64,000 nt of DNA from the IMG/VR virus record IMGVR_UViG_3300036819_000070. One strand, written 5' to 3'. The position numbers and the translations under genes were made by a program. Of this stretch, positions 1-41,605 are shown in pieces (positions within the stretch are counted from its first letter, which is position 1; each line of letters opens with the position of its first letter). The notes beneath the pieces were generated by a model, which was not told the DNA's origin, did not search any database, and saw only the letters and a list, made by a program, of their open reading frames with translations. This DNA comes from a virus (Duplodnaviria; Heunggongvirae; Uroviricota; Caudoviricetes).

Positions 1-1
1 G

Positions 2-850
2 ACAACAGACCACATTGCGCTGATCGGTGCGGGTGGCCTAGGCAAGACGTACGTAGCGGAAGAGTTTGCCGCGCGGCTAGGTGTGCCGTTCCGTCGGACT
101 AACTCAGCGACAGTGAAGACCATACCGCTGATGAAAAAAGCGTTTCGCAAGCTGGAAGCTAATTGTGTCTGGCTGCTAGATGAGTTTCACCTGATCAACG
201 ATGTCACGCGGGAAGGTTTGTTGTATGACGTCATGTCGGGTGATGATTCGACGGACGGTGATGACGGTGCTGAGCCTATTAAGGTGCCGCCGTTCACGCT
301 GATAGCCGCCACAACGGAGGGTGGCTTTACTCCGTCTATGGCGGATCGTTTCGGCGTGAAGTGCGCGCTAGGGTATTACTCGGTTGCAGAGCTCACCACG
401 ATCATTACGGGCCGCGCGGAGCATGACCTATTTTTGATTGATCCGGATGCGGCGCATATGTTGGCTGTTCGGTCACAAGGGGTGCCACGGGTGGCAGGTA
501 ATCGCCTGGCACGCGCAACCGATCAGGCTGTTAAGGCACGGTCCCGAGAAAAGATCACGATGGCGCACGCGACCGCAGCAATGGACCTAGAAGAAATTGA
601 CGCGCTAGGTCTCGGCACGCGTGACCGGATTGTGCTTACCGTGATCGCTAGTGAAGCAGGCGAACCTATCGGCGTGAAATCGATCAAGGCTGTTTGTGGC
701 TTCAACAACGTTGATCAGGAAATGTCGATTTTGAAGCGGCTAGGTTTGATCGCTAAGGCGCCTGGCACTCGCGGTAGTTGGGCCACGCGCGCCGCGTATG
801 AGTTACTCGACTGGACGGTGCCCCCGACGTGTCCGGGTGGTAAGCCGTGA
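2..850 (+). CDS. RuvB-like AAA+ ATPase (Holliday-junction branch-migration helicase homolog); 5' end cut by window edge
   Basis: Walker A LIGAGGLGKTYVAEEF lies at nt 2-80 in frame with ORF 83..850; Walker B LLDEFH; PFTLIAATTEGG and RSQGVPRVAGNRL blocks resemble RuvB sensor/Arg-finger regions. Confidence 0.75.
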   Translation, partial: TTDHIALIGAGGLGKTYVAEEFAARLGVPFRRTNSATVKTIPLMKKAFRKLEANCVWLLDEFHLINDVTREGLLYDVMSGDDSTDGDDGAEPIKVPPFTLIAATTEGGFTPSMADRFGVKCALGYYSVAELTTIITGRAEHDLFLIDPDAAHMLAVRSQGVPRVAGNRLARATDQAVKARSREKITMAHATAAMDLEEIDALGLGTRDRIVLTVIASEAGEPIGVKSIKAVCGFNNVDQEMSILKRLGLIAKAPGTRGSWATRAAYELLDWTVPPTCPGGKP

Positions 851-1394
851 GCAAGCTACGGGATGCGGCTGGACGTCGTGACCGGCGTCGCGTGTGCGCA
901 GTGTGCAGGGCATCGTTACCGGCTAGTGCTAGGGAAGGTGTGACGTATTGCGCGCGTCCTGCGACGTGTCGCCAGGCAGCGTACCGGGCTCGTAAGCGGG
1001 TTAGGTGATTAGCGGTAAGCAATAGGCCGTCACTGTTTGTAGGTGGCGGCTTTTTTGCTGCCCACCACTACTAGGCTGTTCGGGTGAAAACCGGTCGCAA
1101 TATCGGACATATCGCCTGGTGACAGGGTCAAATCCGGTCACACGCGCGTAGGATTTGGTTTGTAGTCGAAGTACAAAAAAATGGTGAGGCCGAGGACGCT
1201 AGGAAGCGTGCGCGGGAAGTCACCGGGAGATAAGCCGTAAGGCGACTAGCTCGGAGACTCGGACCGCGTACGCGGGTACAGGGTGCGGCTGCCATAACAT
1301 AGATCAAATATTTACGGGAACCGCGTAAGCGGTAAGCCGTGCAGCGTTGCGATGTCGGATGGTCTTGCCCACATTGCCCAGCACGCGCCTACGG

Positions 1395-1454
1395 TTCCCG
1401 AGACGTCCTGAACAATGGCGTGAGGCTGTCGGATCGAATCCGGCCAGGACTACT
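1395..1454. promoter_or_regulatory. Conserved ~55-nt 5'-UTR element, copy 1 (TCCCGAG..ATGGCGTGAGGCT..CGGATCGAATCCGGCC.GGA..ACT)
   Basis: Near-identical copy at 3171-3219; contains 7-bp hairpin GTCGGATCGAATCCGGC; sits ~40 nt upstream of a gene start. Confidence 0.3.
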
Positions 1455-1493
1455 AAGGCAGGTACGACTTGATCAAGAGAGGTGGGGAGCGCT

Positions 1494-1730
1494 ATGCCAG
1501 GCGATGAACTGACAGACGCACAGTACGCGCTGTCTGATGTGATTGGTGACATCTTAGACGCGGAGCCTGCTGAAAGCTGGACGCCGTCAGAGATGGCACG
1601 TAAGGCGCACACCACTACTAGTGAAGCGCGCACCGTCCTGCGATGGCTAGTCGCGCACCATATGGCGCTAGCTAGCGGCAATGATGCTTGGACTAGATAC
1701 AGTCACCGGCCACCACACTCAGGGATTTGA
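1494..1730 (+). CDS. hypothetical protein
   Basis: ORF 1482..1730; ATG at 1494 has GGTGGGGAG RBS 6 nt upstream (1482 is a GTG alternative). Confidence 0.4.
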   Translation: MPGDELTDAQYALSDVIGDILDAEPAESWTPSEMARKAHTTTSEARTVLRWLVAHHMALASGNDAWTRYSHRPPHSGI

Positions 1731-1753
1731 TACCGGTCAGGAATGGAGTCACC

Positions 1754-1942
1754 ATGTTGGATATGATGCTAGATCCGGACGCTGTTTACAGTCGCGAGAC
1801 TGGCGATTTCATCGGTACCGCTGTTTACAGTGATGGCCGTGATCATTACCGCGTGACCCCGTATGGACGTCGGCCATGCACGCGCACGTATTTCACGGAG
1901 GCTGTTGATTACCTTAACGAACTGTACGACGCGACACACTAG
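1754..1942 (+). CDS. hypothetical protein
   Basis: ORF 1727..1942 (TTG start); ATG 1754 preceded by GGAATGGAG RBS. Confidence 0.4.
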   Translation: MLDMMLDPDAVYSRETGDFIGTAVYSDGRDHYRVTPYGRRPCTRTYFTEAVDYLNELYDATH

Positions 1943-1960
1943 GCTTAGGAAGGGGTCGCA

Positions 1961-2242
1961 ATGTGTGGTTACAACTATAAGACGTGCAAGCGCGCTAGCT
2001 CATTCTGGGTTCAGTCCACTGTGATCCCACAAAACATATGCGTTTGCGCTAACCACCTGACCGCAGCGGTTCGTGATATGTCCGCTATGGCTTACGACGC
2101 GGTAACCGAACCGATTACTGCCACAACGATATCGTCGGATCACTCGCGCGTTAAGTATCACCGCACGGACAATCACGCGCTAGTGACCGTGAAAGTAATC
2201 ATGCCTCACCCGACACTTTCGGGCACTCATATTTACCGCTAG
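1961..2242 (+). CDS. Cys-rich hypothetical protein
   Basis: ORF with GGAAGGGG RBS before ATG; multiple Cys (CGYNYKTC..CVC). Confidence 0.5.
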   Translation: MCGYNYKTCKRASSFWVQSTVIPQNICVCANHLTAAVRDMSAMAYDAVTEPITATTISSDHSRVKYHRTDNHALVTVKVIMPHPTLSGTHIYR

Positions 2243-2248
2243 CGCCTG

Positions 2249-2270
2249 GCACCACCCGAACCCTAGCTGA
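2249..2270 (+). promoter_or_regulatory. Start-associated conserved motif GCACCACCCGAACCCTAGCTGA (copy 1)
   Basis: Motif ends 11 nt before ATG 2282; 7 copies in the left arm, all 9-13 nt upstream of start codons. Confidence 0.55.
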
Positions 2271-2281
2271 TCGGATACACC

Positions 2282-2413
2282 ATGTTCCGTCTGTATATTT
2301 ACGGATTCGAGCATTATCTGCCCGTGCGTATCTTGCTTATTGTCCTGAGCGTTTGCGTTCTGTGCTTGCAAGTGCCGATCTGGTATCGCATGTTTTTTTC
2401 GCCAGGCCGTTAA
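2282..2413 (+). CDS. small hydrophobic ORF (43 aa), uncertain
   Basis: ATG 11 nt after start-associated motif; hydrophobic product; below ORF-track size cutoff. Confidence 0.2.
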   Translation: MFRLYIYGFEHYLPVRILLIVLSVCVLCLQVPIWYRMFFSPGR

Positions 2414-2429
2414 TTACTCGCGTCACCCT

Positions 2430-2451
2430 GCACCACCCGAACCCTAGCTGA
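2430..2451 (+). promoter_or_regulatory. Start-associated conserved motif (copy 2)
   Basis: GCACCACCCGAACCCTAGCTGA ending 11 nt before ATG 2463. Confidence 0.55.
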
Positions 2452-2462
2452 TTGGACCTGAC

Positions 2463-3161
2463 ATGACCCTCGCGACCGTAACCGAGTCCAGCGTGACCAC
2501 TACTACTACCGATGCCCCGACGTTTGCGACAGTTGACGCTAAGGCGTTCGCTGGCCTGCTCACTGATGTGGTGCTGTTCGCTAGCAAGATCGAAACACTA
2601 CCGGGATTGTGCGCTGTTCAGTTGCAACGGGGCACGGTGGACGGTAAAGCCGTTATCGTGGCGCGGTCAACGGACCGTTACGCGCTGGCTGAGGGTTGGG
2701 TCCATTGTGACGGTGCCACCGTGTGGCCTGAGGCCACCATCCTCATTCCGACTGACGGGGTAAAACAAATCCTAGGTGTGTTGAAAGGCACCCCTAGGGG
2801 CGGTATGGCGATTGTGACCGTGACTAAGGACGATAAGCGTGGCGTGCTGACGATTAACGTCGACAATTTCAGGGCGCAGGCCACCGTGATATGTTCCGAT
2901 GGTTGCTTCCCTAGCGGCGTCAAGAGTTTGTGGCCGTCCGGTAGTGATGTGGTGCCCGCTGTGCGCGCGTTTGGTCCTACCATCATGGCGCGTCCGGCGG
3001 CTGTTGCTAAGCGCCGTAGCGAACCGTTGCGTATCCACTGGGATGGTAAGCACGCTAACGGTGGTGTCCTGATGAGCACCGGGCAAGATTTCCGGGTGCT
3101 TATTATGACGTACCGGGATGACGCCGTCGGTTACGCGTTCGCTGAGCCGTCTTACAGCTAG
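2463..3161 (+). CDS. DNA polymerase III beta sliding-clamp-like protein
   Basis: Blocks STDRYALAEG...ATILIPTDGVKQILGVLKG resemble DnaN motif TDGHRLA...VIVPRKGV.EL.R.L; shorter than bacterial DnaN. Confidence 0.5.
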   Translation: MTLATVTESSVTTTTTDAPTFATVDAKAFAGLLTDVVLFASKIETLPGLCAVQLQRGTVDGKAVIVARSTDRYALAEGWVHCDGATVWPEATILIPTDGVKQILGVLKGTPRGGMAIVTVTKDDKRGVLTINVDNFRAQATVICSDGCFPSGVKSLWPSGSDVVPAVRAFGPTIMARPAAVAKRRSEPLRIHWDGKHANGGVLMSTGQDFRVLIMTYRDDAVGYAFAEPSYS

Positions 3162-3170
3162 GTCTTAATG

Positions 3171-3219
3171 GTCCCGAGGATGGCGTGAGGCTACCGGATC
3201 GAATCCGGCCGGGATCACT
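3171..3219. promoter_or_regulatory. Conserved 5'-UTR element, copy 2
   Basis: GTCCCGAGGATGGCGTGAGGCTACCGGATCGAATCCGGCCGGGATCACT; matches 1395-1454. Confidence 0.3.
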
Positions 3220-3229
3220 CTTGCATTGT

Positions 3230-3243
3230 CCGAACCCTAGCGA
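3230..3243 (+). promoter_or_regulatory. Start-associated motif (copy 3, 3' half only)
   Basis: CCGAACCCTAGCGA 12 nt upstream of ATG 3256. Confidence 0.4.
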
Positions 3244-3255
3244 TTGGAAATAACC

Positions 3256-3663
3256 ATGTCAGCTACCGATAGCCCTACCGACCGCGCGGTATTCCATATG
3301 ACGCGTAAGCCTGACAGTCTCCGTCGGGAAGGACGCGATGGGCGGACCATTGTTGCCCGTTGGACGTTGTGGGTCAACGATGACCTATCGCAAGAGGTCA
3401 CCGCGCTTTACGTGTCGCATTGGCCTGGTAAGTACCGCGCGTCATTGAACCGCACACAAATGGCGGCGCCCAGTGCAGGCATGTTCACTGTTGAGACGTC
3501 CTCGCCTATGGACGCTATCGAGGTTCTGACGGAACCGTCTAAGCGTTACAGCGCTAAGAATCACCGCGCGTTCGTTGATAAAGCGATTGCGCTGGTCAAC
3601 GATCCCGATAACGCTAGCCGTTTCGCCTATAAGTTTGATCCGACTACGGACCCTAAGGACTGA
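3256..3663 (+). CDS. hypothetical protein
   Basis: ORF 3244..3663 (TTG); ATG 3256 follows start-associated motif. Confidence 0.5.
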   Translation: MSATDSPTDRAVFHMTRKPDSLRREGRDGRTIVARWTLWVNDDLSQEVTALYVSHWPGKYRASLNRTQMAAPSAGMFTVETSSPMDAIEVLTEPSKRYSAKNHRAFVDKAIALVNDPDNASRFAYKFDPTTDPKD

Positions 3664-3670
3664 TCCGAAT

Positions 3671-3898
3671 ATGGATCCCAACGAAACGCTGCGGTTATTC
3701 CGTGAGCGATACGCTAACTATTCGGCATTGTCTGATCGGCGTGAGGCTACGGAAGAGGAAGGCGGACTAGGCGCACGGGAAGATCTCGACCTAGAGATAT
3801 TGGACGAACTAGAATATGCGGCTGGTCACGCTCACGACCTATTCGAGTGGTTAGCGACCGGTGGATATGCCCCGGATTGGACGGTCACTAATGTTTGA
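3671..3898 (+). CDS. acidic hypothetical protein
   Basis: Internal ATG of ORF 3575..3898 just after the upstream stop; acidic C-terminal half. Confidence 0.45.
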   Translation: MDPNETLRLFRERYANYSALSDRREATEEEGGLGAREDLDLEILDELEYAAGHAHDLFEWLATGGYAPDWTVTNV

Positions 3899-4184
3899 GC
3901 AGGTCGACAGTACATCAGAGCATGATGTGATCGTGTGGGAAGTGGTCACGGAGGAAGATCTGACCCTATTGGTGCGGACGAACGGTAACGCAGGATTCGG
4001 GCCGGTCAATATCTGGGATGGCGAACGGTGGCACGCGGTCAAGTACCGCAAACATGCCGCGTGCCGTCAATTCCTGATGTGCGAAAACACTGCGGTTACG
4101 GCATTGCCTCACCCGATATTCGGTGATGTGCCCTCTTGCCAGCGGTGCGCGGACAAATTGGAGGCTATCCGCAATGGCACGTAG
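3891..4184 (+). CDS. Cys-rich hypothetical protein
   Basis: ATG 3891 overlaps the upstream TGA (translational coupling); C..C..CQRC cluster. Confidence 0.45.
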   Translation: MFEQVDSTSEHDVIVWEVVTEEDLTLLVRTNGNAGFGPVNIWDGERWHAVKYRKHAACRQFLMCENTAVTALPHPIFGDVPSCQRCADKLEAIRNGT

Positions 4185-4410
4185 TCGTTTCAAACCTGCT
4201 GAACGCGCGGTTTTCGTAGTAGGTGCCAAGATCGAATGGCGCAACGGTGGACACTGGCACCCTGCCGAGATTATCGAGGGTATCGACGTTGACGGCATCG
4301 GTGTCCAACGCGTGATGATTCGGCACACTGGCCGGACCACTCGCACCGTGAGCACTGGCGAGACTTTCGGCGGCTATCCCGGAAAGATCCGCGTCCCTAC
4401 TACCGCGTGA
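4174..4410 (+). CDS. hypothetical protein (MARSR- N-terminus)
   Basis: ATG inside the 15-nt junction AATGGCACGTAGTCG overlapping the upstream stop; the same junction recurs at 6230. Confidence 0.45.
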   Translation: MARSRFKPAERAVFVVGAKIEWRNGGHWHPAEIIEGIDVDGIGVQRVMIRHTGRTTRTVSTGETFGGYPGKIRVPTTA

Positions 4411-4478
4411 CCCTGCCTGCCCCCGTGCGCCCGTCCAGCTCACTGCTGACGGCCACGGGGCACCGGTAGGCATGCGCT

Positions 4479-4513
4479 GCACCACCCGAACCGAGTAACT
4501 CGAACCCTAGCGA
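4479..4513 (+). promoter_or_regulatory. Start-associated motif (copy 4, internally duplicated)
   Basis: GCACCACCCGAACC-GAGTAACT-CGAACCCTAGCGA upstream of GTG/ATG 4523/4526. Confidence 0.5.
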
Positions 4514-4522
4514 AACGAGCCC

Positions 4523-5470
4523 GTGATGAGCACTGCGACCGCAGTACGTAGCAAGCGACACCGCACCACCCGACCGGCGGCCAGTACCGACCGGCCTAGG
4601 TTCGATCCGTATCAAGAGGTGACCGATCAGATCATCGCGCTGTTGGAGTCCGGTACTGCACCGTGGCACAAGCCGTGGGATGCGGCTAACGGTGGCATGC
4701 CTAGGTCATTGTCTACCGGTAAGCCGTACCGGGGTATTAACCCGTTCCTCTTGCAGATGGCGGCTATTGCGCACGGGTACGCGTCGCCATGGTGGGCGAC
4801 TTACGACAATATCGCGTCGCGTGGTGGGCAAGTACGCAAGGGTGAGAAGGGCACCATGGTTATTTTCTGGAAGCAGTACGTCCGGAAAGCTACAGAAGTC
4901 GGCGAGGACGATAGGCCAGCTTTCGTGGCGCGTGCGTTCAAAGTGTTCAATACCGATCAAGCGGATGGTTTGACGTTGCCACCCATTGCGGAGCGGCCCG
5001 TTGATTCGGTTGATCCTATCGCGGCTTGTGATGCGGCTATCGCGGGTTATCTCGCGACCGGCCCGACGGTGCACCATGGTGGTAATCGCGCCTGCTATTG
5101 GCCAGATGCGGACACTATCAACATGCCAGAGCGGGACACGTTCGACGGTTCCGAAGAGTATTACGGGACGTTGTTTCACGAAAGCGTGCACAGCACGGGG
5201 CACAAAAAGCGTTTAGCGCGGCCCGACTTGCTCAATATGCACGCGTTCGGGGACGTGAGCTATAGCAAGGAAGAATTGGTCGCTGAGTTGGGGTCAGCAT
5301 TCCTGTCCGGTCATACCGGTATCACCGTCGTTACCCTGCCAAACTCAGCGGCGTATCTGGCCTCTTGGATTAAGGTATTGCGCGGTGATCATAAACTGCT
5401 AATCCAAGCGGCAGGGCAAGCACAAAAGGCAGCGGACCTAATCCTCGGCATTACCTACGATACCGAATAG
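4523..5470 (+). CDS. ArdC-like antirestriction protein (ssDNA-binding N-domain + zincin metalloprotease)
   Basis: N-terminal PWHKPW...GINPFLL region resembles ArdC-N/DUF1738; C-terminal HESVHSTGH (HExxHxxGH) zincin motif. Confidence 0.7.
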   Translation: MMSTATAVRSKRHRTTRPAASTDRPRFDPYQEVTDQIIALLESGTAPWHKPWDAANGGMPRSLSTGKPYRGINPFLLQMAAIAHGYASPWWATYDNIASRGGQVRKGEKGTMVIFWKQYVRKATEVGEDDRPAFVARAFKVFNTDQADGLTLPPIAERPVDSVDPIAACDAAIAGYLATGPTVHHGGNRACYWPDADTINMPERDTFDGSEEYYGTLFHESVHSTGHKKRLARPDLLNMHAFGDVSYSKEELVAELGSAFLSGHTGITVVTLPNSAAYLASWIKVLRGDHKLLIQAAGQAQKAADLILGITYDTE

Positions 5471-5477
5471 GTGCATC

Positions 5478-6023
5478 ATGTTCTCACGCACTAACGAATA
5501 CGCATTCCTTGCGAACGTTCCGCATACTATCCACGGTCTGCGGATCTTGCAGGTTTCCAGATACGTGCCTGGTGGTAATGGATGGTATGCCAGTGCGACC
5601 ATTGTCGCGCTACGGACCGATGACGCGACTTATTCGACTCACACGCTTATCGCTCAGGATGATATGGGCGAGACAATCGTTTGGTCTATGGAGCGCGGAC
5701 ACTACGATATCCGAACATTGCAGGACGCCGAACGCGACGCGCTAACGCGAGCTGGACGGATTGGACCACGCATAGAGATAATCGTTTGGCGTGATCCCGA
5801 TTCGAGTAATGAGGTTGCCGTATTTGTGGACGGCGTCGCAATCGACAATGCGGAAATAATCAACATCGACCCCGGTGCAGGTTGTTCCCGCAGCGACTGG
5901 GAAGAAAACGCGGCGAGTGCGGTAGCGGCTGCTACCCCGAAAGCTGCGGTGCTGATTGCTGATTGGTTCGAGCAGGCAGGCGATAGCCCATACATCACCG
6001 ACGACGACGACGACGACGATTAA
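5478..6023 (+). CDS. hypothetical protein with poly-Asp C-terminus
   Basis: 181-aa ORF; (GAC)7 at 6001-6021 encodes DDDDDDD. Confidence 0.5.
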   Translation: MFSRTNEYAFLANVPHTIHGLRILQVSRYVPGGNGWYASATIVALRTDDATYSTHTLIAQDDMGETIVWSMERGHYDIRTLQDAERDALTRAGRIGPRIEIIVWRDPDSSNEVAVFVDGVAIDNAEIINIDPGAGCSRSDWEENAASAVAAATPKAAVLIADWFEQAGDSPYITDDDDDDD

Positions 6024-6029
6024 GGGCAG

Positions 6030-6242
6030 ATGATCATCATGGAACGCACTACGTTTAGCCTGACAATGAACCTCACCGGCGCGACGTTCGATTACGATAA
6101 GGAAGGCGAGACGGCGCGACTGTTGCAAGAGGTCGCTGCGAAAGTGAGGGACGGAGCGGTGTCCGGTCCAATACGTGACGGAAACGGCACCACAATCGGT
6201 AGCTACACATTCGGTACCGACGGTGATAACGATGGCACGTAG
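6030..6242 (+). CDS. hypothetical protein
   Basis: 70-aa ORF directly after upstream stop. Confidence 0.4.
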   Translation: MIIMERTTFSLTMNLTGATFDYDKEGETARLLQEVAAKVRDGAVSGPIRDGNGTTIGSYTFGTDGDNDGT

Positions 6243-6477
6243 TCGGTTGCTCACGGTGGAAGGCGCGCGTGGTGTCGCCAGTTATGACCGGCAAGGATTT
6301 GTCACGGTCACGGTTACGTCCGGCGGTAATTCTACGTCGAACGCGTGGCGCGGCGCCGGACGGTACTACCGTGCGGCGCGTATGGCGCAGGAATGCAAAC
6401 GTGACGCTGCCCGGTATGCGGAAGAGGGTCGATACTTTGAGCGCCTACGTGCCGCTGAAATGACGCTGGACGATTGA
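6232..6477 (+). CDS. hypothetical protein (MARSR- N-terminus)
   Basis: Internal ATG of ORF 6175..6477 within a second copy of AATGGCACGTAGTCG overlapping the upstream stop. Confidence 0.45.
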   Translation: MARSRLLTVEGARGVASYDRQGFVTVTVTSGGNSTSNAWRGAGRYYRAARMAQECKRDAARYAEEGRYFERLRAAEMTLDD

Positions 6478-6530
6478 TCTTTTTTCCCGTGATGCATCGG
6501 AACGCTAACGAGTCTCCAGCCGTTCACACG

Positions 6531-6580
6531 CTCCCCTAGGGGGCCGGACGGTTGGCTTGCCCGTTGGGGCACTGTGCACA
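6531..6580 (+). promoter_or_regulatory. Conserved promoter-like element CTAGGGGGCCGGACGGTTGGCTTGCCCGTTGGGGCAC (copy 1)
   Basis: Second copy at 7351-7403; TTGGCT/TTGGCC -35-like hexamer; each copy lies just upstream of a start-associated motif. Confidence 0.35.
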
Positions 6581-6601
6581 ACCAACCCGAACCCTAGCTG
6601 A
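6576..6601 (+). promoter_or_regulatory. Start-associated motif (copy 5)
   Basis: GCACAACCAACCCGAACCCTAGCTGA then GAGGAG RBS and GTG 6612. Confidence 0.5.
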
Positions 6602-6611
6602 GGAGATCACC

Positions 6612-7100
6612 GTGCTGTTTATGAACGAGTGGGAAATCGATAACGCTTACCGGCGCTACCGGGATCACCCGGTATTAGGGCCAGCGACGATAACGCTCTG
6701 TGCGTTACGGGATGCGACTAACGCTTGCTCGGATGGTTGGGCGTACTGGCCTAAGCCGTGCCGCGCTGCCCGGAAGCTACAGGAATTGATCACGGGCGAC
6801 CCTACGCGTTCATATCACGATGACGAACGGGCGGACGCTACGGCAGCGAAACTACGGGCAGCGTTGGCACCTATCAAGGCGTTGCGCACCCGTGAGAGTG
6901 CCCTGACTTTCGAGATCACGGAAACGTTACCGGTCATTGTTGAGGCCACGCCGGAAGTCGCGGACGCGTATTCGATCACCGTAGACAGTCACCGGGACTG
7001 GCACACGCTCACATCTATGCGGGCCGAATTGTCGGCACTGGCGAACGTACTGGACGCCTTGCCTCCCGGTGAGTCAGTCACGATTAAGCGTCATCGCTAA
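6612..7100 (+). CDS. hypothetical protein
   Basis: GTG 7 nt after GAGGAG RBS, in frame with ORF 6552..7100. Confidence 0.5.
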   Translation: MLFMNEWEIDNAYRRYRDHPVLGPATITLCALRDATNACSDGWAYWPKPCRAARKLQELITGDPTRSYHDDERADATAAKLRAALAPIKALRTRESALTFEITETLPVIVEATPEVADAYSITVDSHRDWHTLTSMRAELSALANVLDALPPGESVTIKRHR

Positions 7101-7124
7101 CGAGCCGAACGGAGAACGATCACA

Positions 7125-7319
7125 ATGGATAGGTCATTAAGCGATGACGCACGGGCGGTTATCGCGGGATTGATAGCAGACGGCAGTGAGCACGACATAA
7201 ACAAGGACGGCATTACGGCAAGCGACGCCGTGTGGTCAGAGATTCGGGAGGCATTCCCTATCGAACTATTTAGGGCCTGGTCGACCGATGACAATTACAA
7301 CCCGGATGCCGGGTACTAG
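7125..7319 (+). CDS. acidic hypothetical protein
   Basis: GGAGAACGATCACA-ATG RBS context. Confidence 0.45.
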   Translation: MDRSLSDDARAVIAGLIADGSEHDINKDGITASDAVWSEIREAFPIELFRAWSTDDNYNPDAGY

Positions 7320-7350
7320 ATCTGAGTGTGTTGTCCAGGCGCCCGACCAC

Positions 7351-7403
7351 CCGACTAGGGGGGGCCGGGCGTTTGGCCTGCCCGCTTAGGGCAACTACCG
7401 CAG
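7351..7403 (+). promoter_or_regulatory. Conserved promoter-like element (copy 2)
   Basis: CCGACTAGGGGGGGCCGGGCGTTTGGCCTGCCCGCTTAGGGCAACT; matches 6531-6580. Confidence 0.35.
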
Positions 7404-7421
7404 CACCGAACCCTAGCTAGG
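7400..7421 (+). promoter_or_regulatory. Start-associated motif (copy 6)
   Basis: GCAGCACCGAACCCTAGCTAGG then GGAAGG RBS and ATG 7435. Confidence 0.5.
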
Positions 7422-7434
7422 AAGGCTGGACACA

Positions 7435-7698
7435 ATGACCGGTAACGATGGCAATACTGACAACACCGAACGGGTGGAAGCTGCGCACGTCGCGCTTAGG
7501 GCGTTCGCTGGACACTGCGGGCCGGATGAATACGGCACCAATCTAGGCGACCCTGATGAGTTTCTCACCATTGCGGGTGACCTGATCGCTAACCTCTTGC
7601 ACGCTGCGGACGCGGTAGACGTTGACGCGGACACATTGCTAGGCCGCGCAATCCTGCACTACTCAGCGGAAAGCACGACGCCGTACGACTTGCCCTGA
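7435..7698 (+). CDS. acidic hypothetical protein
   Basis: 87-aa ORF with motif + GGAAGG RBS upstream. Confidence 0.5.
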   Translation: MTGNDGNTDNTERVEAAHVALRAFAGHCGPDEYGTNLGDPDEFLTIAGDLIANLLHAADAVDVDADTLLGRAILHYSAESTTPYDLP

Positions 7699-7700
7699 AC

Positions 7701-7720
7701 GCACCACCCGGACCCTAGGA
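7701..7720 (+). promoter_or_regulatory. Start-associated motif (copy 7)
   Basis: GCACCACCCGGACCCTAGGA then GGAAGG RBS and ATG 7733. Confidence 0.5.
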
Positions 7721-7732
7721 AGGCTGGACAGT

Positions 7733-8074
7733 ATGGACGCTATCGACTTCCGCGAGGCTGGCCGCCAGGCGTACCTGGCTGGCGAACCGTCCGCGCCGTG
7801 GCTTAGCGCTGCGGTACGCGACGCCGTAGGCGCGTTGCCTGTAGGTGGTGGCGCGGCTGGCATCATGCGCGCCTACTCAGATGGGTGGCACGCGGCGAAC
7901 GCTGCCGCGCCGGTCGTTGGGGTGTGCACCATAGACGGGGTGACCCCGTGCCCTATGCATGCCGGTGCAGTGCACGTGCCGAACGGCGCGACGCTGGCAC
8001 AGTGCCTAGAGATGAGCAAGGCAGCGGCGAGGCAACCGCGCGTGCCGACGTTCACCGGGTGTAACGATGTGTGA
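7733..8074 (+). CDS. hypothetical protein
   Basis: 113-aa ORF; RBS AGGAAGGCTGGACAGT-ATG. Confidence 0.5.
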   Translation: MDAIDFREAGRQAYLAGEPSAPWLSAAVRDAVGALPVGGGAAGIMRAYSDGWHAANAAAPVVGVCTIDGVTPCPMHAGAVHVPNGATLAQCLEMSKAAARQPRVPTFTGCNDV

Positions 8075-8089
8075 GCTTTCCGTGACCGT

Positions 8090-8130
8090 CCCGTTTGCCC
8101 GCGCTATGCGGGCAGCGGGGCGGTTTTTTT
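8090..8130 (+). terminator. Rho-independent terminator (7-bp stem TGCCCGC/GCGGGCA + T7 run)
   Basis: CCCGTTTGCCCGCGCTATGCGGGCAGCGGGGCGGTTTTTTTG directly after stop of 7733..8074. Confidence 0.5.
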
Positions 8131-8132
8131 GT

Positions 8133-8273
8133 CTGTGGGTACCGCCATATGGGTGCGGTATCGCAGGACTGTCGCCCAGCGTTTGGGTACCGCCATCCGG
8201 GTGGTGCTATGGGCTACCACCCGTTTGCTACGAGCTGGGCTGGCCGGCGTTTGGGTACCGCCGAATGGGTGGT
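8133..8273. repeat. Three ~24-28-bp direct repeats GCGTTTGGGTACCGCC(A/G)(T/A)NNGGGTGGTG (iteron-like)
   Basis: Copies at 8133-8154, 8178-8205, 8246-8273, spaced ~45-68 bp, between terminator and next RBS; overlapping ORFs 8067..8285/8095..8328 show repeat-derived peptide periodicity. Confidence 0.5.
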
Positions 8274-8337
8274 GATTATCAGTGATCGTTCGGTCGCTGT
8301 CAGCCACTGCCCGCAATGTCCGTTATAGGAGGTTCGC

Positions 8338-8805
8338 ATGAGCAAATCGGACACACCGGACAGAAGGGACGGACACCCCAGAGGGGACAGAAGGGACGGA
8401 CCGGACCAACGGGACGGAAGGGACGTACCGGGCAAAAGCGGCAAACGCCGCATTTCGCCCGAACCGCTCATTTCGCTCGATTCGTGGTGGCCGGGCGACG
8501 TGATCGGTTTGCCGGCCGAACCGCCGGCCGGGACGGAGCTGGAGGTGCGCGGCGGCGATCATAACGGGCGCCGGATCCAGCGCGGCGACGGCGGCTGGTC
8601 GGCGGGCGACGGTACGTGGTTTGGCGTTTTCCGCACGGTGGGGCCGGGGTCGGTGCCCGGTGTGACGTTCGTGGTGACTAAGGCGCCTACGCGGTGCGCT
8701 GGCTGCGACCGGTGGTTCGTTGGTCCTGCTCAGCAGCATTACCACGATGACAATTGTCGGCGCCGGTCGTCAAGAACACGCCATGGGCAACACCCGAAAA
8801 ACTAA
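8338..8805 (+). CDS. hypothetical protein with N-terminal RRDG-type repeats and Cys/His C-terminus
   Basis: GGAGG RBS before ATG; N-terminus encoded by tandem GGGACAGAAGGGACGGAC repeats (8352-8430); CAGCDRW...HYHDDNC. Confidence 0.5.
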   Translation: MSKSDTPDRRDGHPRGDRRDGPDQRDGRDVPGKSGKRRISPEPLISLDSWWPGDVIGLPAEPPAGTELEVRGGDHNGRRIQRGDGGWSAGDGTWFGVFRTVGPGSVPGVTFVVTKAPTRCAGCDRWFVGPAQQHYHDDNCRRRSSRTRHGQHPKN

Positions 8806-9044
8806 AGCATGCTTATTGTGCGCAGGAAAAGCATGCTTATTGGTACGCAGGAAAAAAAGCATGCTTTATGTTCGCGGTGGCTTGTGCTGGCAATCGCACC
8901 ATGTGTAGCCCCGGCAAAGGTCGTGGGTGTCGGATTCACACGCGTCGCAGACGAAGTTCAGGAAAAGCATGCTTTGTTTACTCCCCTGCCGAAAAGCATG
9001 CTTATTTGGCGCAGCAAAGCATGCTTATTTTGTTTTTTGGGGTG

Positions 9045-9116
9045 CGACTCTGACGGGATTCGAACCCGCGCCTTCCACCTTGACAAGGTGGCGCTCTCCC
9101 GTTGAGCTACAGAGCC
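9045..9116 (-). tRNA. tRNA-Asp (anticodon GTC)
   Basis: Minus-strand cloverleaf: acceptor GGCTCTG/CAGAGTC, D arm GCTC-AACGGGA-GAGC, anticodon stem CCACC/GGTGG loop TTGTCAA, T arm GCGGG-TTCGAAT-CCCGT, discriminator G, no encoded CCA. Confidence 0.75.
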
Positions 9117-9125
9117 AAAGCATGC

Positions 9126-9323
9126 TTATTCGGTGGCGTCTTCTGCTCGGCTGCCTTGCCACGCTGAAAAGTGCCCGGCGATGTTAGCCCACACGGACAT
9201 CAGCACGATCCACTTAATCGACTGGCTCCACCATAGCAGCGACGGAATCAGCAACAGCACCCACATGGTGGTGAGGGTCGCATGGACGTGACGCCACGTC
9301 CTGGCCTTCGGGACACTGAGCAT
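9126..9323 (-). CDS. small membrane protein, uncertain
   Basis: 65-aa ORF with hydrophobic core; its ATG is the centre of palindrome copy at 9319-9327. Confidence 0.25.
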   Translation of the reverse strand: MLSVPKARTWRHVHATLTTMWVLLLIPSLLWWSQSIKWIVLMSVWANIAGHFSAWQGSRAEDATE

Positions 9324-9406
9324 GCTTAGGCCTTTCGCTCAAAGCATGCTTTTGTTTGGCGGGGGAACCTACCGCGCTGGGCAGGTTCCCCCGGTTGCCC
9401 CGCGTC

Positions 9407-9598
9407 TTAGAGGATAGGGCCGGACAGGATGGGGCCGGGCCCGAGGTCGAGAACGGTCGCACAGTTAGCGATGTTCACCGAATGGGGCTGGGAGCAGCCA
9501 CCGTAGGTGTTGTTGTCGGCGAACGCTGCACCACTGCCGGCGAGGAGCAGGCCGGCGGCCAGTGCCGCAGTGCCGAATACCGCTGTGAGCTTGCGCAT
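9407..9598 (-). CDS. small secreted protein (signal peptide)
   Basis: Internal Met MRKLTAVFGTAALAAGLLLAGSGAAFA signal-like N-terminus; ORF 9407..9727. Confidence 0.45.
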   Translation of the reverse strand: MRKLTAVFGTAALAAGLLLAGSGAAFADNNTYGGCSQPHSVNIANCATVLDLGPGPILSGPIL

Positions 9599-9644
9599 CT
9601 GTTGTTCGTTTCCCTTCGTAGGTGGCCTCAGACTGCCGGGTGGG

Positions 9645-9791
9645 TTACTGCACCACCCACAGCACGAAGCCCAAGACCAGGAAGATAACGCCCAGTTCTG
9701 CCACCGCAGGATAGCGGGGCGAGGCAACGGGCATCATCGTGGTAACGGCGGTGAGGAAAACGCCGATGGTCAAACAGATCGTGGCGAGCAT
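9645..9791 (-). CDS. small hydrophobic peptide (48 aa), unlisted ORF
   Basis: MLATICLTIGVFLTAVTTMMP...; ATG 2 nt after stop of upstream small ORF. Confidence 0.3.
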   Translation of the reverse strand: MLATICLTIGVFLTAVTTMMPVASPRYPAVAELGVIFLVLGFVLWVVQ

Positions 9792-9793
9792 CC

Positions 9794-9904
9794 TTAGTGG
9801 ATGAACAGCAGGTAGGCGAGCCCTATGACAAGGTCAGCGGCGATCACGAACGTGAGTGCTGCCAGCGTTGCGATGCCTAACGCCAGGCCTGTGAGTCTCA
9901 CCAT
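9794..9904 (-). CDS. small hydrophobic peptide (36 aa), unlisted ORF
   Basis: MVRLTGLALGIATLAALTFVIAADLVIGLAYLLFIH; single TM helix. Confidence 0.3.
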   Translation of the reverse strand: MVRLTGLALGIATLAALTFVIAADLVIGLAYLLFIH

Positions 9905-9958
9905 GAAACGTAGAACGACCCGCCCCCGACGGTGGTGGTGGTCAGAAGGCGGGCCGTT

Positions 9959-10855
9959 TCACCCAAGGAGCCGGTGTCCAGTGGAGGGGACGGATACCGG
10001 CATCGACTCGGGCAAACTTTTCGGATCTTGCCGCACCGTATCCGGCGGATTCGGTTCCCGCAACTCCGTTACGGGCGCTTTGCTTTGGTGCTGGTAGCGG
10101 TTCCCCAACGCGGTGAGGACGTCACGGATCCGGTACAGGGGTGGGATGGTGTCGGGTACGGGCGCTAATCGGCCGCGCCGGACGTAGCCTCGGATCGTTT
10201 CGTAGGTGCATTTCATGCCGGTGGTTTGGAGGAATCCGGCGATCTCAACGGCGGTTCCGAGGTGGTCTTGGGCGATGTCGTGGAGCCACGCTTGACGCAC
10301 GGCGATGTCGTGTCGGGTACCGCATTGGGGGCAGGTCGCGTGGGTGTTCCACGGGACACCGTAGACCTCGTATCGGCAGTACAGGCCGGGGCTGAGTTCG
10401 GTGGCGCACGGGCCGAGGAACTGTCGGCGGTCGTCGGGCCGGTCGATGGCGTGGCGCGCGGCGTGGATGGCGATGGTGATCTCGTCAACGAGCTGGCCGG
10501 CGTCGGCGTGGACCCGGATCCGGGCGAGGTTGGCGACGAGCCAGCGGGCGACGTCGGCGGTGGGTACCGGCCGCGCGAAGTGGGCAGGGTTGAAGTCGTG
10601 GGCCCAGCTGGTGAGGGTGTGGTGGAGGATCCACGCGACTTCGGGGATGTGGGTTTTGAACGGCAGCGGGTTCTCACCGGAGCCGGGGCCGTTGCTGTAG
10701 GGCTTGCCTAGTTGGTCTTGCCGCGAGTAGGTGATTTCGAGGTTGCGTACCAGCGAGGGGACGTCAACGAGTTCGATGCGCAGGCCGATGGTGCAGTCGT
10801 TGCACAACACGACGATGCCACCGGCGGGCGCGCGGCACTTGACGCAGTACTTCAC
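9959..10855 (-). CDS. Zn-ribbon-containing hypothetical protein (possible DNA-binding)
   Basis: N-terminal CVKC...CNDC and C-terminal CPQC; basic GYVRRGRL segment. Confidence 0.55.
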   Translation of the reverse strand: MKYCVKCRAPAGGIVVLCNDCTIGLRIELVDVPSLVRNLEITYSRQDQLGKPYSNGPGSGENPLPFKTHIPEVAWILHHTLTSWAHDFNPAHFARPVPTADVARWLVANLARIRVHADAGQLVDEITIAIHAARHAIDRPDDRRQFLGPCATELSPGLYCRYEVYGVPWNTHATCPQCGTRHDIAVRQAWLHDIAQDHLGTAVEIAGFLQTTGMKCTYETIRGYVRRGRLAPVPDTIPPLYRIRDVLTALGNRYQHQSKAPVTELREPNPPDTVRQDPKSLPESMPVSVPSTGHRLLG

Positions 10856-11176: not shown

Positions 11177-11221
11177 AAGCATGCTTTTTGGGCCGGGAAA
11201 GGGGACGGGAAAAGCATGCTT
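11177..11221. promoter_or_regulatory. Two more AAGCATGCTT palindromes (11177-11186, 11212-11221), 35 bp apart
   Basis: Exact 10-mers with AAAA/TTTT flanks in the intergenic gap between minus-strand genes. Confidence 0.5.
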
Positions 11222-27477: not shown

Positions 27478-28344
27478 TCACGCTGATCCGCCCCATTCGG
27501 GAAGCCGGTTCGTGATCCGGCGCTTGTTATGCAAATTGACTAAAATCTCGGCCATTGCGTCTGAGATCCGGCCACCGCGAATGTCACGCAGTTGCTTTGC
27601 CTTGCCGATCAGACCCAGCGGGCCGCCTTCGTGTTTGCCCAGTTCGGTGACGACTTTCGCGACGTCGAGGCGCGGGTATTGACGCAGGAGCACACCTAAA
27701 CCGGAGACGATTTCGGCGCGCAACGCATTACTGTCGTGGCCCCACGCGGCGGTCGCGAGCTTGACCAACGCGTCGCAGGTCGCGAGGTCACGTCCCTCTT
27801 TCGGCGCCCGGTACACCCGCTCTAATGCGCTGACAGCGAAAAACGATCCTTTCGCTTGGGCTTTGCGGATGGTCCAGCCGTGGGATTCGAGCATCGCGGC
27901 CAGTTCGCAGGCAACGGGATCGCCTTCCACAATCCGGACCCGGAATCTATCGAGTATCTGTACTTGGCGGGTGTTGTTCAAACGGCGGAACATCGCCGCT
28001 TCCTCAGCGCGTGTCAGGCCAGTCCACAGGACACAGGCCACGGGAATGTCCCCTCGGCCGATGACGTGAACAGCGGAAATGCGGTGCTGGCCGTCGATGA
28101 TGTGGTGCGTTCCGTCGGGTCGTTCGGAAACGTGGATCACGCCCAACGCCTCACGCTCAAAGTCGGCGGCGATACCAGCGACCCGAACCGAATCGAGGGG
28201 CCGTTGCACGCTTTGGTCGACGGTGAGCAGCGCCGGCTCAATCTGGGTGATGGTGAACGTCGCCCTACTTGACGGTGGTTTCACACCTTCGAGATCGTGG
28301 GTCCGCACCGGCGGCGGGGTTTTAGTGGGGGTTGCGGTAGTCAT
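27478..28344 (-). CDS. ParB-like nuclease-domain protein 1
   Basis: HHIIDGQHRISAV ParB/Srx N-domain motif; 288 aa. Confidence 0.7.
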   Translation of the reverse strand: MTTATPTKTPPPVRTHDLEGVKPPSSRATFTITQIEPALLTVDQSVQRPLDSVRVAGIAADFEREALGVIHVSERPDGTHHIIDGQHRISAVHVIGRGDIPVACVLWTGLTRAEEAAMFRRLNNTRQVQILDRFRVRIVEGDPVACELAAMLESHGWTIRKAQAKGSFFAVSALERVYRAPKEGRDLATCDALVKLATAAWGHDSNALRAEIVSGLGVLLRQYPRLDVAKVVTELGKHEGGPLGLIGKAKQLRDIRGGRISDAMAEILVNLHNKRRITNRLPEWGGSA

Positions 28345-40174: not shown

Positions 40175-41605
40175 TCACCATGAGGTCAGCTCCTCGAAAT
40201 TGATACGGAATGGCCGGGTGTCCTCGATCGGCCGCCAGTGGCCTTTCCCGCATGGTTCGTACCGCTGTTTCCAGTACGCCGGCCCGCGTTGCACGATTTC
40301 GCGTAGCGCCCAGTCGAGGTCTATGAGTTTCTTGGGGGTCACGTCGAGTCCGAATGAGAGGCGTACCCCGCCGGCTAAGTCACCACCGTCGTGCGCCTGA
40401 CCGATTTGTTTGGCCTGTTGGGGGCTGTAATCCAGCAAATGGGCCACGAGAATGTGGGCGCAGAAACATCCGCCTCGGTTTGCGGTGGCGAAGTGGCCGG
40501 CGAGGACTGCGGATACCAGGCCCCAGTCGAAGCCCTCAATGTTGAAGGTGATCACGCCGACTTTGGGATGGTTCCGATCCCACATGTGGTAAATCTTGAT
40601 GCCGGGAATGTTGTCGATGAGGTTGTAGGCCAGGTCCAGTAAAAGGGATTCCCTGGCAGCGATCCGGTGGGTGTCAGCGCGCCGCAGGGCGGCCATAGCT
40701 ACGGCAGTGGCTAGTGCACCGACCACGTTGGGGCTGCCGGGTTCGTTGAGGGCTTCAACGTCGGTGGTCCATACGATTTCGCGGTCTGCGTAGATGAAGT
40801 CAACGATGCCGCCACCGGTGATCAGCGGCCGGATACCTTCGAGGAATTTGCGGGGGCAGGCGAGGACACCGCAGCTGTATTGGGCGCCGAACTTGTGGCC
40901 CGACGCGACGCCGAACTTGGTGCGGAGCTTGCGCATGCTCACCGGGTGGTGCGCGGCGAGTTGCGCGAAGTCGCCCAGCAGGGGCGTGCCGTGTTTGTCT
41001 TCGGTGATCGCCGCGATGGCCGCGAGGTCGGGCATCTCACCTGTGACGTTGCTGGCGCCGGTGACACCGACCAGATCAGCGGGACACCGGGTGAGTTCCG
41101 CGTCGATCATCGCGAGCAACTCATCGTGGGTTTCGGGTACCGGCAAGATCGTGAGATCGATGTACTCGGCGACCTCGAACGGCACGATCATCGCGTTGTG
41201 TTCCATACCAGTGATCAGGACCCGCGCACGCCGCTTAGCCGCTTTCGCCCGCTCGTTGAGCACGTGGGCGATGATGTTCAGGCCACCGGTGCTGTTGTTG
41301 GTGAACACGATCGCGGTGTCGTCGTCGGCGTCGAGGAACCGGCGGGCAACTCGCCGGGCGTGTGCGTAGTGGGCGGTCGCTTCCCGTGAGTTGGCACCGG
41401 GACCGCGTTTGATAGCACACGCGGTGCGGTTGAAATCGCGGACGAAGTTTTCGACCACCACCAGTGCGGAAGCACTCGCGGCGTGATCGCAGTTGTTTTC
41501 GATCCGCCAACGGCCATCGACGGTGGGTACGACTACGTCTTGACTGGCCAGCTCTAATCCGGGGTTCATGGCGTGACGTGGTGTCCGCTCGGCGGTGGTA
41601 GTCAA
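40175..41605 (-). CDS. class V aminotransferase (cysteine-desulfurase-like PLP enzyme)
   Basis: 476 aa; ASGHKFGAQYSCGVL resembles the SGHK(x)GP.G.G PLP-lysine motif of the IscS/SufS/CsdA family. Confidence 0.75.
   Translation of the reverse strand: MTTTAERTPRHAMNPGLELASQDVVVPTVDGRWRIENNCDHAASASALVVVENFVRDFNRTACAIKRGPGANSREATAHYAHARRVARRFLDADDDTAIVFTNNSTGGLNIIAHVLNERAKAAKRRARVLITGMEHNAMIVPFEVAEYIDLTILPVPETHDELLAMIDAELTRCPADLVGVTGASNVTGEMPDLAAIAAITEDKHGTPLLGDFAQLAAHHPVSMRKLRTKFGVASGHKFGAQYSCGVLACPRKFLEGIRPLITGGGIVDFIYADREIVWTTDVEALNEPGSPNVVGALATAVAMAALRRADTHRIAARESLLLDLAYNLIDNIPGIKIYHMWDRNHPKVGVITFNIEGFDWGLVSAVLAGHFATANRGGCFCAHILVAHLLDYSPQQAKQIGQAHDGGDLAGGVRLSFGLDVTPKKLIDLDWALREIVQRGPAYWKQRYEPCGKGHWRPIEDTRPFRINFEELTSW

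Follow-up and report, generated by a model that had tools for sequence, protein, structure and literature searches.

A conserved 12-mer in the gaps of one phage operon

We examined a 64,000-nucleotide (nt) stretch of viral DNA (IMG/VR record IMGVR_UViG_3300036819_000070, Caudoviricetes), referred to below as the window. The plus-strand genes at 1494-8074 form one operon of non-structural genes spanning about 1.15-8.1 kb, whose products include a sliding-clamp-like protein, an ArdC-type anti-restriction protein and many small PHROG-family proteins without an assigned function. In the gaps between these genes a short sequence recurs ahead of the start codons. The conserved unit is a G-poor 12-mer with sharp edges, (C/T)CG(A/G)ACCCTAG(C/G), also written CCGAACCCTAGC, which we call the word. 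Its copies and partial copies are as follows:

Copy 1: exact 22-mer at 2249-2270, core 2256-2267, plus strand, 14 nt before ATG 2282
Copy 2: exact 22-mer at 2430-2451, core 2437-2448, plus strand, 14 nt before ATG 2463
Copy 3: core only, 3230-3241, plus strand, 14 nt before ATG 3256
Degenerate form CGGACCCTAAG: 3647-3657, plus strand, before ATG 3671
Half copy GCACCACCCGAACC: 4479-4492, plus strand, 5' module and beginning of the core, with the real core 21 nt further 3'
Copy 4: core 4500-4511, TCGAACCCTAGC, plus strand, 14 nt before ATG 4526 of the gene for the ArdC-like protein
Copy 5: core 6587-6598, followed by tGAGGAG, plus strand, 13 nt before GTG 6612
Short form AGCCGAAC: 7109-7116, plus strand, abutting a GGAG Shine-Dalgarno sequence before ATG 7125
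Copy 6: core 7406-7417, followed by tAGGAAGG, plus strand, 17 nt before ATG 7435
Copy 7: 7701-7719, variant GCACCACCCGGACCCTAGG, core 7708-7719 reading CCGGACCCTAGG, plus strand, 13 nt before ATG 7733
Copy 8: exact 12-mer at 41996-41985, minus strand, outside the operon, 162 nt from a tRNA-Met gene

When the window was searched with a 13-mer core at up to two mismatches, 11 matches were found versus 2.06 expected, and none of 100 shuffles reached 11. Seven of the matches lay on the plus strand within 2255-7719 and four on the minus strand elsewhere. The seven plus-strand copies are far beyond chance, and the 12-mer is a real, selected signal. The initial annotation had described seven copies of a longer 22-mer, GCACCACCCGAACCCTAGCTGA. 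The number agrees with the seven plus-strand cores, but the 22-mer itself is exact only at 2249 and 2430 and has no further site at three or fewer mismatches. Among the positions that it listed, the one at 4479 marks the half copy and not the real core at 4500-4511.

The edges of the word are clear from an alignment of the eight best copies on the core. Each of the 12 positions carries 1.5-2.0 bits of information, versus at most 0.7 bits in the 5' flank and at most 1.2 bits in the 3' flank. In half of the copies nothing is conserved 5' of the 12-mer. A 5' module, GCACCACCCGA, is present with copies 1, 2 and 7 and in the half copy at 4479, and it occurs alone within the ardC coding region at 4563. 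The sharp 12-nt edge argues for selection on a recognition site rather than for recent duplication.

All seven operon copies lie on the coding strand, each 5' of a start codon. Strand and position specificity, which the initial annotation had put up for checking, was borne out, the operon copies being intergenic, on the coding strand and tied to start codons. Within the 35 kb of phage genome visible in the window, where the genome is incomplete, the copies are restricted to this one operon. No strong copy was found among the minus-strand genes at 9.9-35 kb, where the sole weak match is CCCGAACCCAAAC at 19711-19699.

The word is anchored to start codons

From copy 1 to copy 7, the distance from the end of the core to the start codon is 14, 14, 14, 14, 13, 17 and 13 nt, and the 5' edge of the core lies 25-29 nt ahead of the start codon. 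The spacing had been put at 9-13 nt; it measures 10-14 nt from the end of the 22-mer frame and 13-17 nt from the end of the core. The start codons themselves are backed by homologues beginning at the same residue in four of seven cases. A Shine-Dalgarno sequence (GGA, GAGGAG or AGGAAGG) follows the core by 0-5 nt in six of the seven copies, as the initial annotation had it in placing the motif directly 5' of the ribosome-binding site (RBS); copy 4 departs from this with a weak GAG alone.

The word is found in every one of the operon gaps of 34-134 nt (7/7), and the full word in none of the nine junctions that overlap or measure 24 nt or less. Two of these short junctions hold degenerate forms, reading CGGACCCTAAGGA ahead of the start at 3671 and AGCCGAACGGAG ahead of the start at 7125. 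The short form AGCCGAAC is the form seen at several genes of the relatives L014, L059 and L075. Copy 1 takes up most of a 39-nt gap ahead of a 43-amino-acid (aa) membrane open reading frame (ORF) starting at ATG 2282. Copy 2 sits in a 49-nt gap before the gene for the clamp-like protein of 232 aa, and the gap of copy 7 is 34 nt. Where the gap is long, in four cases, the word keeps to the side of the Shine-Dalgarno sequence, and a non-conserved spacer of 11-24 nt separates it from the upstream hairpins or tRNA-like structure. If placement were uniform, a distance of 13-17 nt in all seven gaps would have a probability of about 3e-8, a post hoc figure of our own arithmetic in which copies 1-3 and 6-7 are non-independent.

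Conservation and replacement in relatives

We compared the word with its counterparts in related contigs. In L008, with a 99% match in ArdC, copy 4 is the same and the half copy reads CCCGAACCTAGC, which makes a tandem pair. In L073 and L074, with an 88% match in the clamp-like protein, cores 1, 2 and 3 are unchanged within a block of 91.9% identity, even though other genes have taken the places before copy 1 and after copy 3, the start of the second lying 15 nt past the core. In these two contigs at least six differences in 24 nt are seen in the 5' flank of copy 2, with the core intact. L059 and L071 share just the module 7325-7714 at 95.9% identity, including copy 6, whose core and flanks are identical; the aligned stretch consists of the gap and the gene after copy 6, and in L071 the homology stops inside copy 7, at 7714. 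Mosaic junctions with L073 and L071 fall at 2244, 3243 and 7714, at the edges of or within motif copies.

By contrast, the more distant syntenic relatives (L014, L059/L071 and L075) have orthologous genes without the word and carry other intergenic repeats instead. The dominant upstream word of L059, GGGATGCCCGCTAGGGCA, forms a 5-bp stem with a 4-nt loop, is preceded by a second hairpin and occurs at 7 of 13 genes. In L014 the upstream word is AGCCGAA, abutting the Shine-Dalgarno sequence. The upstream words of L075 are long Shine-Dalgarno sequences of the GGTGATCACG type and GCTAGGGCA. Long Shine-Dalgarno regions of the form (AGCC)GAAGGGTGATCA occur at many genes in L014, L075 and L059 and at 7109-7124 of the window; we take their complementarity to the 16S 3' end to extend further than that of the usual GGAGG. 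The sequence ahead of ardC in L075 is CCGAACTAGGGAG, so the 12-mer may have been preceded by a shorter CCGAAC...TAG form.

These comparisons answer the suggestion to search relatives: close relatives keep the core and distant syntenic ones carry other repeats. Judged by the alignments, the word is under selection within its own lineage, and it is lineage-specific and dispensable for these genes in other lineages. Its absence from the distant syntenic relatives makes a feature of the host ribosome or a host-wide signal unlikely, since the word co-varies with the phage lineage.

An IMG/VR search for the core followed by N(2-5) and GGA gave 44 matches, among which the only true relative was L059. 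The IMG/VR matches to a 15-mer were single occurrences, and the one match of a 19-mer in GTDB lay inside a coding region; both were put down to chance. The same judgement was made for L029, L048/L058, L051 and L041, which have motif, Shine-Dalgarno sequence and start codon, yet no genes in common with the window.

RNA structure around the word

Folding of each gap left the word unpaired or weakly paired and in no recurrent structure. Hairpins or other structures lie upstream of copies 3-6 and none upstream of copies 1, 2 and 7, whose gaps fold worse than shuffles. An Rfam search of positions 1-10000 at E values up to 1 returned a tRNA-Asp and one sub-threshold match to a small RNA only.

Two kinds of structured element are found upstream of the word. 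Copy 3 begins 12 nt 3' of a tRNA-like structure, one member of a family of three-way junctions of about 46 nt (window 1405-1450 and 3169-3217, plus strand; L014 1890-1932 and 7895-7939; L016-L026). The fold consists of an outer 6-8 bp stem and two hairpins, a small one with the loop GUGAG and a T-arm-like one, CCGGAUCGA(A/C)UCCGG. Without exception the junction is intergenic, on the strand of the genes and directly past a stop codon. Ten different sequences, drawn from several contigs and folded one by one, adopt the same shape, and all three helices show compensatory changes; Rfam and ARAGORN both missed the junction. It could be a processing signal of the RNase P/Z type or a 3' stabiliser.

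Copies 5 and 6 each have a two-hairpin module upstream, ending in TGCCCG(N3-4)GGGCA (window 6558-6571 and 7379-7393). The same module occurs in L059 in seven copies (for example 7689-7702), in L014 upstream of ardC and in L075 in three copies. It lies 27-41 nt before starts, and in L059 it begins at the stop codon with CTAGCGCGTTTCCTG. Its stems are invariant in sequence, which suggests a palindromic protein site and not a mere RNA hairpin.

Several other identities for the word were tried and set aside. For an antisense RNA acting in trans, the plus strand of the operon region offers no other complement of at least 9 nt, barring GTTCGGGTG at 1078, part of an inverted variant found 5' of the operon promoter, and iterons with GGGTGGTGC. 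Read-through or an upstream ORF does not apply, as the TAG of the word is in frame with the upstream gene at copy 1 only and not at copies 2 and 7. The match to the reverse complement of the tRNA T-arm TCGAACCC spans only 7-8 nt and was treated as chance. An integron attC-like cassette site was rejected because no R''/R' core sites are present.

Operon, candidate reader and phage context

The features at the two ends of the operon are as follows:

Inverted variant: 1086-1071, minus strand, CACCCGAAC-AG-CCTAG, with a 2-nt insertion, between the upstream terminator and the operon promoter
Predicted -10 hexamer TAGGAT: 1149-1154, plus strand, SigA-type operon promoter deduced from alignment and sequence reading
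Gene g1494: 1494-1730, plus strand, first gene of the operon, 78-aa winged-helix protein, candidate trans-acting factor
Likely operon terminator: 8086-8130, plus strand, hairpin with seven T, read from the sequence and not listed by a simple scan

A terminator at 1024-1052 lies 5' of the promoter region. The promoter region is conserved, with -10 hexamers TAGTGT in L059 and TAGACT in L014, and a leader of about 330 nt follows it in the window. The order terminator, SigA-like promoter and long leader recurs at window 1024-1493, L059 6440-7203 and L014 4080-4552. Across these three the leader before the first operon gene measures 330-760 nt, and that of L073 has a 106-nt insertion. The inverted variant lies 62-77 nt upstream of the -10 hexamer. 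At the corresponding place L059 has ACCCGTTTGGCCTAGCC and L014 has ACCCATTTAGCCTAGCG, both given as the reverse complement, and this place is conserved in the two as ACCC-N5-GCCTAGC. Just past the operon terminator, at 8128-8274, stand three iteron-like repeats, GGGTACCGCC-N4-GGGTGGTG, which contain the reverse complement of the 5' module of the motif (GGGTGGTGC) and are conserved in L071 at about 10640-10740.

The protein encoded by g1494 has 112 small homologues in its family. Its structural model (mean pLDDT 83.5) contains three helices and a beta hairpin, and the structures closest to it are those of winged-helix nucleic-acid binders (Z-alpha, ArsR/MarR and AspA), to which weak profile hits can be added. 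The family profile matches the window, L073 and L074 only, and found nothing in the examined parts of L014, L059/L071 and L075.

A RuvB-like AAA+ ATPase is encoded just upstream of the operon. The operon faces convergent minus-strand genes from 9.9 to about 30 kb, which encode RecE/RecT, a RuvC-like resolvase and a ParB-like protein (27478-28344). The minus-strand arm also has an SPFH gene, and a tyrosine integrase lies at 34-35.5 kb. The same gene order, a plus-strand operon facing a minus-strand arm, is seen in four independent contigs (L071, L075, L026 and L014). Judged by this recurrence, the window from 1 to about 35.5 kb (1-35518) is one temperate phage or prophage genome, with the tRNA-Asp (9044-9116) inside it. 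No deposited phage matched at the nucleotide level. L075 encodes Lsr2, and there are weak protein matches to Arthrobacter and Microbacterium phages, which suggests an actinobacterial host. A host-like gene of the window, for a class-V aminotransferase at 40175-41605 (minus strand), has close homologues (70-93% identity) in metagenomes only, pointing to an uncultivated host lineage; its nearest named organisms, at about 35%, are Dormibacteria, Actinokineospora and Amycolatopsis.

Further repeats and compositional features were seen in this part of the window. A palindrome, AAGCATGCTT, occurs in 10 copies versus 0.04 expected (8805-9351 and 11177-11221). Eight of them fall in 550 bp flanking the phage tRNA-Asp, where the two arms converge, and the palindrome could be a centromere-like or origin-like site. 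CTAG occurs 35 times in window 1-4000, 4-5 times more densely than in the rest of the window, and the GC content of the same region is lower (56-58% versus 62-65%). The gene at 8338-8805 begins with three tandem 27-nt coding repeats (GGACAGAAGGGACGGAC...) at 8358-8438, and its protein ends in a Cys-rich zinc-ribbon-like C-terminal tail that is also present in a 53-aa ORF at 847-1008. Two small genes (4174-4209 and 6232-6267) share the opening sequence ATGGCACGTAGTCG, and each overlaps the end of the gene before it in the same manner.

Possible modes of action

We tentatively read the word as a strand-specific expression signal, linked to translation initiation and recognised by a phage-specific factor, a reading that we consider possible rather than probable. 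It is ranked first on two grounds. The near-fixed anchoring to the Shine-Dalgarno sequence would not be needed by a transcriptional roadblock, a promoter or a recombination linker, and the word stands exactly at those cistrons that cannot be translationally coupled. The operon would be transcribed from the conserved SigA-type promoter at about 1150. Cistrons that overlap or nearly touch their predecessor would need no signal of their own, and those at least 34 nt away would rely on the word directly 5' of the Shine-Dalgarno sequence. There a lineage-specific factor would read it, most likely in the mRNA, the candidate being the 78-aa winged-helix protein. The positions -15 to -26 fall in the mRNA stretch generally held to be covered by the 30S subunit, so a protein bound there could set the frequency of independent ribosome starts, as a translational operator or activator. 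Translational action, reading as RNA and the winged-helix protein as reader are all three what we infer.

A number of observations weigh against this reading. The core is as accessible as the same position in genes lacking the motif (mean unpaired probability 0.55 versus 0.58), and no consistent upstream pairing partner was found, with z scores from -1.15 to +2.07. The constancy of the spacing is explained in part by the tight packing of intergenic elements in a compact phage genome. No start codon follows the inverted variant ahead of the promoter. Copy 8 is followed by AAGGAAG and by an ATG 19 nt on, yet this opens merely a 28-codon ORF rich in R and P, which is no convincing gene. Moreover, the co-occurrence of the winged-helix gene and the motif comes from one lineage only, and winged-helix proteins mostly bind double-stranded DNA. 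The initial annotation had offered a translation-initiation or mRNA-processing signal, or the site of a phage RNA-binding protein. This proposal is still among the candidates; the tests for an RNA structure, for a difference in accessibility and for a pairing partner came out negative.

The main rival, itself doubtful, is an operator at the DNA level similar to the stoperators of other phages, in which a regulator such as the g1494 protein would bind the double-stranded 12-bp site, at many oriented positions within the operon and at one near its promoter, and block or damp transcription in the manner of the L5 repressor in Cluster A mycobacteriophages. The inverted variant, copy 8 with no convincing gene and the lineage-specific winged-helix protein fit such a reading and keep it alive. 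The site has the expected form, asymmetric, about 12-13 bp long, oriented with transcription and placed in short intergenic gaps, and its lineage-specific sequence is what a co-evolving DNA-binding protein would lead one to expect, the candidate having a DNA-binding fold. A variant stands upstream of the operon promoter, at a place conserved in three lineages, and the three iteron-like repeats past the terminator, in both the window and L071, contain GGGTGGTGC, the 5' module in reverse complement. However, a roadblock could stand at any distance from the start codon, yet in long gaps the site invariably keeps to the Shine-Dalgarno sequence. Stoperators occur throughout the two arms, whereas the minus-strand arm at 9.9-35 kb is without a strong copy. 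The copy near the promoter is, furthermore, inverted and carries a 2-nt insertion.

It is unlikely that the word is a recombination linker, that is, a boundary sequence spread and homogenised by recombination, which would provide short homology for module exchange and have no regulatory role. Three of the six mapped mosaic junctions lie at or in a copy, at 2244 (a left edge), at 3243 (2 nt past core 3) and at 7714 (inside core 7); in addition, the 43-aa gene at 2282 stands between 27-nt direct repeats that are 96% identical, and copies 6 and 7 have 32 nt in common, extending into the coding region. Junctions are expected at gene boundaries anyway, however, and the gaps here are mostly motif. 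A linker needs neither a single orientation nor a fixed distance to the start, and the sharp 12-nt edge together with unchanged cores in diverged flanks points to selection on the word itself.

We consider it more unlikely still that the copies are internal promoters for a modified or phage-directed RNA polymerase, with transcripts starting a few bases downstream and a minimal leader from the Shine-Dalgarno sequence. Conserved, oriented words of 12-22 bp before genes are typical for phage-specific polymerases or sigma factors, and four copies come after strong hairpins, which are possible terminators. The clamp-like protein and the AAA+ ATPase encoded nearby offer a loose parallel to the late promoters of T4, made up of a -10 element alone and switched on by the sliding clamp. 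Nevertheless, a scan for sigma-70-like promoters gave six sites, none on a copy, and their number was not above that in shuffles. On its coding strand, read by eye, the word contains no TANNNT hexamer of the kind seen in the real operon promoter. The sequence 5' of the 12-mer is unconserved in half of the copies, the leaders would be just about 5-10 nt long, and a fixed distance to the start codon is not normal for promoters. No RNA polymerase or sigma gene was found among about 45 proteins scanned, many ORFs being unannotated.

Least probable, and in our view very improbable, is an mRNA processing site, at which an endoribonuclease would cut to give monocistronic mRNAs with short leaders while upstream structures protect the preceding 3' end: four copies do follow stable structures, one of them tRNA-like, and the core (AC/CCU, with the slash at the cut) fits the RN/CNU preference reported for mycobacterial RNase E, but by our own estimate about one 12-mer in four would satisfy by chance a five-base preference with three fixed bases, a site for a host RNase would neither require as many as 12 conserved bases nor be absent from relatives, and copies 1, 2 and 7 have no upstream structure.

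Returning to the initiation-linked signal, a more specific form of it joins the 12-mer and the winged-helix protein into a self-contained regulon, in which the word would be read, as RNA or as DNA, beside the RBS of every independently initiated cistron. This proposal is likewise a doubtful one. In addition, the same word may double as homology for swaps of gene modules between phages.

Comparison with known repeats and significance

Repeats that are short, oriented and linked to starts have been on record since 2011 from many clusters of actinobacteriophages, with, to our knowledge, a function established for none. The start-associated sequence (SAS) of Cluster K has a 13-bp consensus, GGGATAGGAGCCC, with at most two deviations, and sits in the RBS position, 3-7 bp from the start, with an AGGAG core (PMC3203893). 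SAS and extended SAS (ESAS) elements are found in Cluster K mycobacteriophages and Cluster EF Microbacterium phages (PMC3203893, PMC7302621), and a 2025 survey still describes their role as unverified (PMC12699233). The analogy to SAS drawn in the initial annotation holds for the broad class, with a different sequence, but not for the position, as SAS occupy the RBS itself and the word lies upstream. Like SAS, the word is short, asymmetric, in one orientation, tied to starts and associated with non-structural genes. It too is kept before unrelated gene families (copies 1 and 3 in L073) and has upstream elements alongside, yet it is lost in distant relatives. Unlike SAS, CCGAACCCTAGC bears no resemblance to GGGATAGGAGCCC, has no AGGAG core and stands 5' of a separate Shine-Dalgarno sequence, with its core ending 13-17 nt from the start. 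The upstream partners of the word are hairpins or tRNA-like structures, whereas those of SAS are 17-bp imperfect inverted repeats. Inverted repeats are also described in Clusters O and EG (PMC4351075, PMC7302621).

A closer counterpart is the 18-bp asymmetric motif TAGaCTATaGGTgTaAgC of Cluster EC Microbacterium phages, with a similar one in Cluster EI, which is placed 5' of the RBS at 21-30 bp from the start codon (PMC7302621). It has about a dozen copies in small intergenic gaps, in one orientation and mostly at non-structural genes, and its authors call the role 'unclear' (PMC7302621). The word resembles it in being asymmetric, repeated in small intergenic gaps with the copies oriented alike, and placed upstream of the RBS, its 5' core edge at 25-29 nt before the start falling within the 21-30 bp. 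It differs in sequence, being unrelated to TAGaCTATaGGTgTaAgC, and the host genus and the phage are unrelated as well. It is also more closely fixed to the start and, as far as the genome is visible, limited to one operon.

The stoperators of Cluster A, bound by the L5 repressor gp71, are about 13 bp long, asymmetric, located in short intergenic gaps and oriented with transcription (PMC3203893, PMC4351075). The word shares with them the asymmetry, the multiple copies, the orientation with transcription and a lineage-specific consensus; the inverted variant with its 2-nt insertion may correspond to the related site that they have near the early promoter. The word is unrelated to them in sequence (GGTGGMTGTCAAG), is held at a near-fixed distance from the start and is not spread over both arms of the 35 kb visible. 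For stoperators the binding of a repressor has been demonstrated; for the 12-mer there is only the candidate winged-helix protein.

In its supposed way of working, the word may be likened to the sites of T4 RegA and Mu Com. These phage proteins bind short single-stranded mRNA sites that, in several genes, lie in the RBS or immediately 5' of it. The analogy would lie in a short site beside the RBS and a small phage protein that sets initiation. The candidate here is a winged helix and unrelated to them, with RNA binding only proposed.

Since the word departs from SAS in both sequence and position and agrees with the EC motif in position, it is best filed as a further case of the known oriented intergenic repeats of actinophages (SAS, EC motif and stoperators), with the EC type closest. 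By itself the 12-mer is one more case of a known class, from an uncultivated phage, and the surprise is modest. Nevertheless, it offers a clean test case, with a sharp 12-nt edge, a near-fixed distance to the start, persistence through gene exchange and one candidate reader in the same operon. The replacement of one repeat by another among syntenic relatives points to phage-specific readers rather than to the host ribosome. If the regulon of word and winged-helix protein were true, it would be the first mechanistic handle on the SAS-like repeats of actinobacteriophages.

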